From the NCBI GenBank assembly GCA_013152945.1, contig JAADFL010000205.1:23301-87300 (forward strand): a stretch of DNA of 64,000 bases, in the 5' to 3' direction. The first letter of the stretch is position 1. Each line of letters starts with the position of its first letter. Below are positions 5,535 to 11,075 of the stretch, one piece after another. Both the position numbers and the translations under genes were made by a program. Below the pieces are notes generated by a model. The model saw only the letters and a list, made by a program, of their open reading frames with translations, was not told the DNA's origin and searched no databases. This stretch comes from Deltaproteobacteria bacterium. GTDB lineage: Bacteria; Myxococcota_A; JAADFL01.

Positions 5535-8500
5535 ATGTGGAGCACTGAAGAGAGTGGGCGGCGTTCTAGCGCATGGAACGTGGGGAGCAACGGTTTTCTG
5601 GGATTTGTTGCGGCTCTTGCCGCTTCTACAGGGCTGCTGGCCTGCAGCGGAAGCAATGGTTCGTCCTCGGGAGGTGGAGGCGACAAAGACAAGGAGATAG
5701 TCTGCGAAGGCCCAGCGCCGTCGTCGGAGAAAGCCGGTTTCGTGCGCGCCTCGGTGTTGCGCTCCGATTCCGGGGAACCGGTTAAAGGCGCCGTGGTGAC
5801 CCTGGACGGCGTGGAAGGCTGCGTATCCACGGGCGAGGACGGGATGTTCAAAATTCCCGTGCCCGGCGGCGGAGCGTTCAAGCTCAGGGTACGCTGCACG
5901 GGCACCACGGGCGCCATGAGACGCGACATCGTGTCATCCGGCAGCAGCCTGTCGCTGGGCACGATTTACCTGAAGGACCTGGATCGGGCGATAACGAGGA
6001 TCGGACCTTCAGGGGGAATCCACGAGAGCTCCAAGGGCGGCCTCAAGCTGGAGTTTCCTGTAGGCAGCCTTGCAAGGACCGTGAATGTCCGCGCAACCAG
6101 GTTCGAGCGCTCCAGGGACCTGCCGGCGCCCCTCCCCAGGACATCGCACTTCACCATGGCCTTCGAGGCGGACGTACAAGGCGAGGCCTTGAACAAGCCC
6201 GTTCATGTGACACTGCCCAACGACTACGGGTTTCCGCCGGGCACCAAGGTGCCGGTCGGCGCGTTCGACGACAAAGCCGGCGAGTGGGTGCCCTCGGGCA
6301 TGGGCATGGTGAGCGAAGACGGCAAGACCATCGAGTTCGATGCAAAGCACCTCTCGTCATACGATTGCAACTTGCCCGTTACCGCTACGGATACACCGGG
6401 CGTGTCCAGGCGTGACAAGAAACGTCCTGACAAGGGGTGCGGGAGGAACGGTTCGGGAGGCTCGTCCGAGGTGGACGTGCGCACCGGCGGGCTGGAGCTG
6501 GAGGTGGAGGCTCCACTAGGAAGGACTCACGGCGCGGACCGGAGCCTGACCCTGGTGTATCACTCGATCGCTGCATCGCCTTCCGCATGGATCGGCGGTT
6601 TGAGGACCGAGAACCCGGGCGACTTGAGCGAAGCGCCGAAGTACGCAGGCATGGAAGTGCAGGTGGAGGGCGTACGCCATTTGGTTTACCTCGAGGCGGC
6701 GGAGCAGGAGAACTGGGTCTCCTTCCTGTGGAACGGCCGCGACATCGACGGCAACCTGAAGGAGACCGGGTTGTACGACGCGTGGCTGAGAGCCTTCTAC
6801 GCCTTGCCCGGTGTTTTCGCCACTGCCGACGTATTCGGCGGGCCGCCCGTGTCCAGCCTGGGTATAGAGGCGGACGAGCTGGCCGAGGCGGACGCCGAGG
6901 TCTTTGCCAAGCTGGTGCTGATAAACCAGGTGGACAGCCCCATAGCTGCGGGATGGAGCGTAGCGGGTCTCATGAGCATCCACCCGCACCAGGACGGCAC
7001 GGTCCTCCTGGTCGAAGGCGGTGAGAGCAGGGGCGTATTCGGCAGAACTGGAAGGCTCGAGATCGTTGCAGGGGATCCGGACGGCGGCACGGATTGTGGT
7101 GACGGCTCGCCGGCCCAAAACAGGTGCCTTGACTACCCGGTCGCAGTTGCAGCCGGCCCGGACGGCTCGGTATTCGTCGCTGACAGTGACTCCATTAGGA
7201 AGGTGACACCGGACGGTAAGTGGGAGATGGTGTATGACGGCTCGTCAGGTAACTTCGACCCGGTATGCCTTTCAGTGTCGCCCGGCGGCGACCTGTACGT
7301 ATGCGACGAATGGTCCGGGGTGGTGTACAAAGTCAATGGCTCCGGGCTCGAGAAGGTGGCGGGCGGTGGCCAGCCCTATATGCCTGGTTTGGGCATGGAT
7401 CCCACTGTGAGTCACCCCACGGACGTGGCCTTTGCGCCTGACGGTTCCATGTACATAGCCGATTGGCCTTATGGGCTGCGGCGATTGGCGCCCGACGGGA
7501 CGCTCCATAGCCTGGAGCCGGAAGGTAACCCGGACTACCCGGCGCCATACAAGATAGCCCTTGGGAATGACGGCTCCGTTTACTTGGCGGAGCTCAAGAG
7601 GTGCCGGGTGAGGAGGCTATTGCCGGACGGCACCATGATCACTGTGGCGGGAAGGGACTCTGTGTGCGGGTTTGCAGGCGACGGCGGTTTCGCGTCCAAG
7701 GCCCTGCTGGACCACCCGAACGCCCTCGTCCTTGCGGCCGACGGCACACTGTACATCTCGGACCAGTGGAACGACAGGATCAGGGCCATTGACCCGAATG
7801 GAAGGATAATGACCGTTGCCGGCAAGGGAGCAAAGTCAGGCTCGGGGTTCGGTTTCGGCGGGCCGGCTTTGAACGGCCTGGTGCCCAGACCCGAGGACCT
7901 GGACATGGACGGGAACGGCAACCTGCTCACTGTATACAAGGGAGACGGCGTGGTCGTCCGGGTGGACATGCAGGCGAGGCTCTATGGCAGACCGAACGGA
8001 TCCACGGACAGCCTGGAGCTCCTCTCCGGCGGCAATTACAAGATGGTCAGCGGCATGGGAGCAGTAATCGTTTTCGACAAGGACGGCAGGATGCTGGAGA
8101 GGACCGACTCACACGGAAGAAAGACCGAGTACGAGTACGACGAGCAGGGGAGGCTCTTGCGAGTCCGCGACGACCTGGGACAGGTCGCGAGTCTGTCTTA
8201 TTCCGGCAGTGGCATAGAGATGATCAAGGCTCCTGACGGCAGAGAAACCAGGTTCGAGGCGGACCCGGAGCGGAACCTCGTGAAGGTGACATTTCCGGAC
8301 GGAACCATTAACTCCTTCTCCTACGGCGGGAACCACTTGATGTCAGGATGGACCGATGCAGAGGGAAGGTCTGCTTCGTACGAATACGATGCGTACGGAA
8401 GGATAAAGGCGGTGGACCGGGGAGCGGGCCGAAAGAGGGAGTACAAACCCCTGGAGACCCAGGCGCTGTTGAACGACTATATCGAGGCCGGTCTCGGAAA

Positions 8501-11075: not shown

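Follow-up and report, generated by a model that had tools for sequence, protein, structure and literature searches.

Bacterial teneurin-like proteins (TLPs) are the prokaryotic relatives of the teneurins, a group of animal synaptic adhesion receptors. Jackson et al. (2018; PMC5851990) were the first to note them, and their layout has been described in that study and by Raoelijaona et al. (2026; PMC13018210). The structure and function of these proteins have been characterised only between 2018 and 2026, mainly in cultured isolates. Here, we analysed a gene from the metagenome-assembled genome (MAG) of an uncultured Deltaproteobacteria bacterium (GTDB lineage Bacteria; Myxococcota_A; JAADFL01). 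The gene is located at positions 5535..11075 (+ strand) of a 64,000-nucleotide stretch of DNA (hereafter the window), which corresponds to positions 23,301 to 87,300 of contig JAADFL010000205.1 in assembly GCA_013152945.1. Its product can be assigned to the bacterial TLPs with high confidence. We favour the reading that the gene encodes a lipid-anchored YD-repeat cocoon that would free an encapsulated 13-kDa effector, and that the gene body was likely acquired horizontally; this statement as a whole is given a probability of about 0.72.

The closest described system is the TLP of Bacillus inaquosorum (BiTLP; PDB 9ifo/9pt5), which shows the order TTR, TIP, FN-plug, NHL, YD shell, Rhs core and small C-terminal domain (CTD). 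In BiTLP, a C719-C2216 disulfide is present and an N-terminal cut at G723|S724 has been mapped experimentally (PMC13018210). TTR and TIP domains before the FN-plug are present in 96% of bacterial TLPs. Signal peptidase II (SPII) lipoprotein signals of the Sec pathway are the norm for Gram-negative TLPs, especially those of Myxococcota, the cargo is reported to be about 15 kDa in size, and a PxxxxDPxG aspartyl autoprotease motif has been defined (PMC13018210). The CTDs are generalised as 'highly polymorphic', and 'almost all' TLPs carry an extra downstream gene (PMC13018210).

Related YD-repeat cocoons are known from three other settings. Animal teneurins (Ten1-4, Ten-m; PDB 6fb3, 8fia) have a type II transmembrane anchor, EGF repeats and a C-terminal ABD/Tox-GHH located outside the shell, and they are without the autoproteolytic motif and without TIP (arthropods, higher chordates). 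Rhs effectors of type VI secretion systems (T6SS), such as RhsA of Pseudomonas protegens, Tse5 and RhsP (PDB 7q97, 8cp6, 8h8a), share with TLPs the YD cocoon, the C-terminal autoproteolysis at the Rhs core, the cleavage of an N-terminal plug and the encapsulated C-terminal effector. They have a PAAR/VgrG-binding N-terminus and no signal peptide, NHL or FN-plug; their genes stand alongside T6SS, chaperone and immunity genes, and they end in polymorphic, often AT-rich C-terminal tips. In the TcB-TcC cocoon of Tc toxins (TcdB2-TccC3, PDB 6h6e), a YD shell closed by a beta-propeller surrounds a C-terminal toxin released by autoproteolysis, and this two-chain system needs the TcA translocator.

The gene lies in an intact, uninterrupted open reading frame (ORF; 5484-11075, +). 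Translation from the ATG at 5535 gives a protein of 1846 aa, with a mature form of ~195 kDa and a pI of 4.8. Direct reading of the sequence shows a Shine-Dalgarno-like AAAGGAG (5522..5528, +) 6 nt before this ATG. The protein is identical, at equal length, to the NCBI entry 'hypothetical protein GXP49_17560 [Deltaproteobacteria bacterium]', which derives from a MAG and a 92.7-kb contig. Eight antisense ORFs of ≥100 aa overlap the gene, the longest of 390 aa. They were ascribed in the first-pass annotation to the high GC content of the gene, and such a number is indeed expected with a reading frame rich in GC at third codon positions (GC3).

Sequence searches place the protein among the TLPs. 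The best PDB match by sequence is the B. inaquosorum 'Teneurin-like protein' (E 4e-83). Structures of T6SS Rhs proteins follow far behind (E 1e-21 to 3e-35), and the similarity to Tc toxins is very weak (E 1e-4 to 1e-5), with marginal matches to TccC (E 3e-5 to 3e-4). A profile of the head region (aa 56-860), built from 13 homologues, matches BiTLP at 1e-94. FN-plug, NHL propeller and YD shell follow one another in this order on one polypeptide, TTR and then TIP precede the FN-plug, and by inspection the protein carries the SPII-type lipoprotein signal of the Gram-negative pattern. No match to EGF or Tox-GHH domains was found in the protein by Pfam, and the features that set animal teneurins apart are missing. 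Unlike animal teneurins, this protein has a lipid anchor signal, keeps the protease motif and ends in an unrelated 128-aa CTD. The first-pass annotation had described an Rhs/YD protein with a Sec/lipoprotein signal in place of a PAAR/VgrG-type N-terminus, and with carboxypeptidase-regulatory-like and NHL head modules 'as in teneurin'. Pfam and NCBIfam scans and the lipobox agree with this description, and the resemblance to teneurins is one of homology, not mere analogy (PMC5851990, PMC13018210). Three points go beyond that annotation, namely the TIP and FN-plug domains, the motifs for autoproteolysis, and an orphan CTD that is conserved and has no immunity gene. The protein is a previously unannotated TLP, and the compact clade of lipoprotein type to which it belongs has a presumed cargo that is both novel and conserved.

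All domains of the TLP were delimited on the + strand. The SPII-type signal peptide (aa 1-37; 5535..5645) was recognised by inspection. The N-terminus, MWSTEESGRRSSAWNVGSNGFLGFVAALAASTGLLAC37-SGS, contains a charged n-region (RR), a 16-residue h-region and the lipobox L-L-A-C37 with Ser at +2. Cys37 is conserved in the homologue alignment, where it aligns with the Cys after the hydrophobic stretch of the homologues. A Gly/Ser-rich tether follows (aa 38-60; 5646..5714). The TTR (transthyretin/carboxypeptidase-regulatory-like) domain spans ~aa 61-146 (5715..5972). Its Pfam match to CarboxypepD_reg (aa 73-133) is below threshold, with 25.5 bits against a cutoff of 32.3; the assignment is confirmed by the TLP alignment, which runs from BiTLP residue 400, and by a beta-sandwich in the AlphaFold2 (AF2) model with pLDDT >90. 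The TIP (teneurin insertion protein) domain, ~aa 147-289 (5973..6401), was identified from the BiTLP alignment, an HFSxxDCNxP motif and a weak match to the FAM171 N-terminus. It is the best-conserved N-terminal block (RATRF…LPxPLPxTSHFT…GTxVPVG…HxSxxDCN), with a mean identity of 55% in the clade. The FN-plug consists of an inner loop (aa 290-318; 6402..6488) and the plug domain (~aa 319-512; 6489..7070), the latter delimited from the AF2 model and Foldseek alignments. The NHL beta-propeller (~aa 513-820; 7071..7994) is matched by TEN_NHL (95 bits; cutoff 27) and by NHL. The YD/RHS-repeat shell (~aa 821-1640; 7995..10454) is matched by RHS_repeat (E 7e-56, 8 stretches), by YD_repeat_2x and in part by TEN_YD-shell, with sequence matches to TLP, Rhs and teneurin structures in PDB. 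It is followed by the Rhs-associated core (aa 1641-1718; 10455..10688), which carries the aspartyl autoprotease motif and is matched by TIGR03696 over aa 1642-1718 with 67 bits against a cutoff of 32.5. The remaining 128 residues form the CTD (aa 1719-1846; 10689..11072), a domain of 13.2 kDa and pI 9.5 that is presumed to be the encapsulated cargo. Compared with published TLPs, the protein has no Ig-like or S-layer adhesion modules, and its short tether directly follows the lipid anchor.

Profile alignment and structure modelling of the head give the same picture. Positions 12-202 of the head profile align in one block with BiTLP 400-625, covering TTR and the next domain (i-E 1e-7), and the HFSxxDCNxP block aligns with BiTLP from residue 683. 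In the plug loop, the BiTLP segment …C719-N-K-E-G723|S724 is aligned such that C302 corresponds to C719 and S307 to S724. The AF2 model of aa 56-860 has a pLDDT of 86 and a pTM of 0.84 and shows two beta-domains before the plug loop. Residues 290-318 are the sole long low-confidence segment in this model of the isolated head; in the real protein this loop would be buried in the shell. In a Foldseek search with the head model, the top 13 matches are all teneurins or the TLP structure (E 1e-30 to 6e-20), and the alignments to teneurins and to 9ifo cover 580-870 columns.

The Rhs-core autoprotease motif known from TLPs is fully conserved. When the protein is aligned with 12 full-length homologues of 1809-1850 aa (42-50% identity), R1676, R1678, YD1681P, D1691P, P1709xxxxD1714PxG1717 and G1719-P are invariant in all 13 sequences. 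The Rhs core thus contains PxxxxDPxG, the conserved Arg and, some 20 residues upstream, another DPx, as in BiTLP, and from this motif the aspartyl protease is predicted to cleave after M1718. In the plug loop, C302, G309 and S311 are invariant and position 307 is Ser or Thr, so that the Ser-rich stretch G-S307-G-G-S-S311 is a candidate N-terminal autoproteolysis site and C302 a candidate disulfide partner. Every member has exactly one Cys in the CTD, and C1807 is invariant. A Cys and a Ser-rich loop in the FN-plug, together with a single-Cys CTD, are also seen in BiTLP. By analogy with the mapped cut and disulfide of BiTLP, we infer that the FN-plug loop would also be cut and that C302 would form a disulfide with C1807.

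A mechanism can be proposed from these features. The pre-protein would be exported by Sec, Cys37 would be lipidated and signal peptidase II would remove the signal. The Gly/Ser tether would then anchor the protein, most likely to the outer membrane by way of Sec/Lol and possibly exposed at the surface. The TTR-TIP head and the NHL propeller may provide the binding surface, and the FN-plug would close one end of the YD-repeat shell. Cleavage after M1718 by the Rhs-core aspartyl protease would leave the basic 13-kDa CTD free inside the shell as cargo. A second cut around S307-S311 together with the C302-C1807 disulfide, as suggested by BiTLP, would keep the CTD tethered to the TTR-TIP fragment that carries the lipid anchor. 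The cargo would be released upon target contact and would act as an effector. A toxic function of the CTD is only slightly favoured.

The CTD is a new sequence family that is conserved throughout its clade, where published TLPs have polymorphic CTDs. It is predicted to be helical, and its maximum Kyte-Doolittle average over 19-mers is 0.3-1.1, which indicates that it is without a transmembrane-like segment. The CTDs of the clade range from 12.2 to 14.1 kDa, within the size of ~15 kDa that fits the cavity. The same CTD family is present in 14 of 14 distinct clade members, with a mean identity of 46% against 37-59% for other regions of the protein. A search of 1.84 billion representative proteins with the CTD profile gave three matches, all of them C-termini of same-clade TLPs of ~1,830 aa; at E ≤ 1e-3, the CTD was found in no protein outside the clade and in no other delivery context. 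A Pfam scan of 13 CTDs gave noise only (E ≥ 0.004), and a PDB profile search gave no fold match (best E 0.027). The CTD strings YKAYKAK, FNNFG and AKDPC were not found in the text of PMC13018210, in which the TLPs of Anaeromyxobacter and Sandaracinus are longer and have other CTDs. Among 185,579 species-representative genomes that were scanned, the clade was present in six MAGs only, and those named below the phylum level are Myxococcota (Anaeromyxobacteraceae, Sandaracinaceae, Myxococcales). Three homologue loci are syntenic, with Prismane, methyltransferase, …, TLP and a convergent SGL-like gene, which points to vertical inheritance there.

The neighbourhood of the gene contains no delivery machinery, which resembles other bacterial TLPs. 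Neither in the protein nor in the ~30 large ORFs of the window was a T6SS domain found, be it PAAR, VgrG, Hcp or another. T6SS genes were likewise not found in ~20 kb around six homologues, and the window contains no Tc genes. Pfam and NCBIfam detected none of the N-terminal features of T6SS Rhs proteins (PAAR, DUF6531, VgrG-binding) in the protein, which has a lipoprotein signal instead.

An immunity-type gene is also not found directly downstream, in contrast to published TLPs. The next gene starts 302 nt past the TLP gene. It encodes a phasin-like coiled-coil protein of 107 aa (11378..11701, +), has host-like GC and its own Shine-Dalgarno sequence, and is the first gene of an operon that continues with a ParA-like ATPase gene (11719-12525, +) and an acyltransferase gene. 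A sigma-70-like promoter, TTGACA-16-TATGAT (11282..11309, +), precedes it; this is a consensus match only, at 11 of 12 positions. This promoter-like site argues against the next gene being cargo co-transcribed with the TLP gene. The block of phasin-like, ParA-like and acyltransferase genes (11378-13402) is convergent on selA (14333-15766), and it recurs in the same order, again convergent on selA, at a locus of a related organism, L016 (10001-14224). Between the window and L016/L017, the identities are 57% for the phasin-like protein, 70% for the ParA-like ATPase, 49% for the acyltransferase and 55% for SelA. In L016/L017, an ArsA-type ATPase gene occupies the position of the TLP gene and no TLP is adjacent. 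Since the block is conserved in a relative without the TLP, the downstream gene belongs to a host operon and is not an immunity gene of the TLP, and the TLP gene lies exactly at a synteny breakpoint. Among the homologues, the downstream gene is convergent in L001, L002/L003, L004, L005, L006 and L011/L012; overall, the gene directly downstream is convergent or unrelated in at least eight of nine informative loci, and no conserved partner gene was found across the homologue loci.

Individual candidates for an immunity gene were rejected. The 123-aa ORF downstream of the TLP gene is orthologous to a gene in the locus without a TLP. The 133-aa ORFs that follow the homologues in L011 and L012 resemble artefacts on the antisense strand of a convergent gene. 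A divergent ORF upstream of the TLP gene (4397-5038, −) encodes 213 aa with a lipoprotein signal (…LTFMVTSC) and no Pfam match, and it has no counterpart near any homologue. The only co-directional downstream gene is in L007 (15577-16575, +), where a 332-aa Gly-rich lipoprotein gene follows the most divergent CTD variant (P0008); for that sub-branch, the lipoprotein is a possible immunity candidate. L001, which carries the TLP homologue P0004, and L017, which is syntenic with the selA block, were both recovered from sample ERZ27252234 and both have ~70% GC. They might come from one organism.

Several of these observations weigh against a toxic cargo. The CTDs of the clade are not polymorphic, and an immunity gene is missing downstream both in the window and in most homologues. 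The AF2 model of the CTD is helical with a pLDDT of 42, too poor for a fold search. No family or fold can be assigned to the CTD, and toxicity is assumed from the protein family. The protein may instead be a surface adhesin or cell-cell recognition protein of the TLP fold, with a conserved CTD that is structural or signalling, a counterpart of the change seen in animal teneurins. A non-toxin CTD would need no immunity protein, and the host operon downstream of the gene and the convergent or unrelated genes downstream of its homologues are in line with this. The CTD also appears to co-evolve with the shell, to judge from its similar identity, it is exclusive to the clade, and it is as GC-rich as the shell; a role in communication is left open in the published discussion (PMC13018210). 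The cargo-freeing autoproteolytic machinery is nevertheless fully conserved here, and animal teneurins lost it on becoming receptors (PMC13018210). The CTD has a size that fits the shell cavity, immunity genes may be unlinked or may be needless if the producer is without the target, and 'almost all' TLPs with a downstream gene are not all (PMC13018210). We regard an adhesive or signalling protein of this kind as rather improbable. The main alternative, likewise of low probability, is that the Myxococcota-centred clade of ~1,830-aa proteins forms a 'monomorphic' TLP lineage, in which the CTD would not be a toxin for kin discrimination between bacteria. It could then be a conserved effector on non-self targets (prey, eukaryotes) or else a tethered element for signalling or adhesion.

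Delivery by a T6SS, with VgrG, PAAR or chaperone genes outside the window, is a far weaker alternative. The generic homology of the Rhs core to T6SS Rhs structures is compatible with it, and the inspection covered 64 kb of the 92.7-kb contig. The cleavable lipoprotein signal in place of a PAAR, DUF6531 or VgrG-binding N-terminus and the lack of T6SS genes in the window and around the six homologues speak against it, and we know of no T6SS Rhs protein with a TTR-TIP-FN-plug-NHL head. A T6SS effector is accordingly very improbable. The lipid-anchored TLP with an encapsulated effector remains the preferred reading of the gene product.

The base composition of the gene is anomalous in the window and looks foreign to the host, a further difference from the described TLPs. 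The TLP gene has 61.3% GC (56-65% in 300-nt windows), and the rest of the window has 51.0%. None of the non-overlapping 5.5-kb windows elsewhere exceeds 53.7% (sd 1.2%). The marked GC excess reported by the first-pass annotation is therefore real and composition is not uniform across the window, while its figure of 63-65% was slightly high. The gene has a GC3 of 0.777 (z=5.1), compared with a value of 0.569±0.041 and a maximum of 0.651 for 37 other ORFs. With the synonymous codons of the host, the same protein would be encoded at 54.1% GC, so that about two thirds of the excess comes from synonymous codon choice and not from amino-acid content. In classical E. coli Rhs elements, the GC content of the YD-repeat gene exceeds that of its ~51% GC host by about 10 points, and the C-terminal extension is AT-rich and variable and has a downstream immunity ORF. 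The CTD described here is, in contrast, conserved and GC-rich like the shell (GC3 0.74), which gives no sign of a swapped AT-rich 'tip'.

The anomaly has sharp boundaries, one near codon 60 and the other at the stop codon. The first 60 codons, which encode the signal peptide and tether, have a host-like GC3 of 0.57, lower than any later 60-codon window (mean 0.78, sd 0.055, minimum 0.63). The foreign-looking segment may therefore begin near codon 60 (~nt 5715), possibly at a recombination junction, a placement that rests on 60 codons and is suggestive only. At 10 homologue loci, the GC content of the gene minus that of its flanks is −0.8 to +4.4 points, compared with +10.3 here. As the homologues are close to their own flanks, the excess cannot be put down to the gene family. 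Within the window, GC3 is ordinary (0.51-0.58) in an Hsp70 gene and in other long genes of the surface or repeat type. The window protein stands alone on a long branch in a neighbour-joining tree. The relative nearest by synteny has 70% GC and is thus not close to the host. From the composition and the synteny break, the gene body (~5715-11075) was probably acquired from a donor of higher GC content. In the window, the second-highest GC content (60.7%, GC3 0.65) is found in a 280-aa rhodanese-domain ORF (37029-37871, +).

The horizontal acquisition proposed by the first-pass annotation is likely but unproven. It gains from the homologues that match their flanks in GC and from the synteny break, and it loses from the codon usage for arginine and the lack of any mobile-element signature. 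AGA and AGG (AGR) make up 62% of the Arg codons in the TLP gene and 63% in the host (AGG alone 41%), compared with 0-34% in the homologues. The donor would have to be AGR-rich itself, or selection for AGR would have to have acted in the new host after the transfer. The AGA/AGG preference of the host is unusual and thermophile-like. No tRNA, integrase, flanking direct or inverted repeats or Rfam match was found in the window. Close plasmid-borne TLP relatives were not found either (≤27% identity), and with only 50% identity to the nearest homologue the donor cannot be named. The best matches of SelA are 55-61% identical, and the host lineage is poorly sampled. These points weigh against a simple, recent transfer.

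The alternative is a native origin, in which vertical inheritance was combined with a gene-specific codon bias, caused for example by selection on a long, repeat-rich mRNA or by biased gene conversion among the YD repeats. The shared AGR habit, a similar TTG-Leu share and the lack of a mobile-element signature are consistent with this, and the homologues are themselves slightly GC-richer than their flanks (mean ~+1.5 points). The divergence of the TLP from its nearest homologue is similar to that of the housekeeping SelA. A vertical history leaves the excess of +10 points, compared with at most +4.4 in 10 homologues, without a parallel in the family; the other long surface and repeat genes and the Hsp70 gene stay at ordinary GC3, and the sharp boundaries and the adjacent synteny break are not expected from it. 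We consider a native origin unlikely, although it deserves more weight than an artefact of assembly or binning. The origin of the sequence from a MAG is compatible with a chimeric contig. The gene is internal to the 92.7-kb contig and flanked on either side by host-like sequence, the composition boundaries coincide with the gene ends, the ORF is intact and the gene shares the AGR habit of the host, which together make a chimera highly improbable. Acquisition of the gene body from a GC-richer donor is preferred to both.

The locus extends the TLP family to an uncultured 'Deltaproteobacteria' MAG, in which the protein has so far carried a hypothetical annotation. A compact clade of lipoprotein type is defined as well, and its new cargo domain is, unusually, conserved and without an adjacent immunity gene. 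If this is borne out experimentally, it would bear on two questions raised by the 2026 study, namely how TLPs release cargo without a delivery machine, and whether some TLPs serve in cell-cell interaction and not in warfare. A 'monomorphic' lineage, if real, would illustrate in living bacteria the passage from toxin to receptor that has been proposed for the evolution of teneurins. Otherwise, the result is a well-supported annotation in an already described class, together with a likely horizontal-transfer event.

Several other genes were identified in the window. A 1090-aa gingipain-type Peptidase_C25 protein (15816-19088, −) has a propeptide domain and an (Asp-Thr)n repeat near its C-terminus. 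A surface-type protein of 1669 aa (39303-44312, −) contains ~10 PKD/K319L-like repeats and He_PIG, and its gene has an ordinary GC3 (0.55) despite its size and repeats. Genes with DUF58 and VWA domains (46737-52113, +) show a Bat/MoxR-like arrangement. The 1000-aa protein encoded at 57302-60304 (−) joins a complete Hsp70/DnaK-type ATPase to a PilZ (c-di-GMP-binding) domain at its N-terminus.

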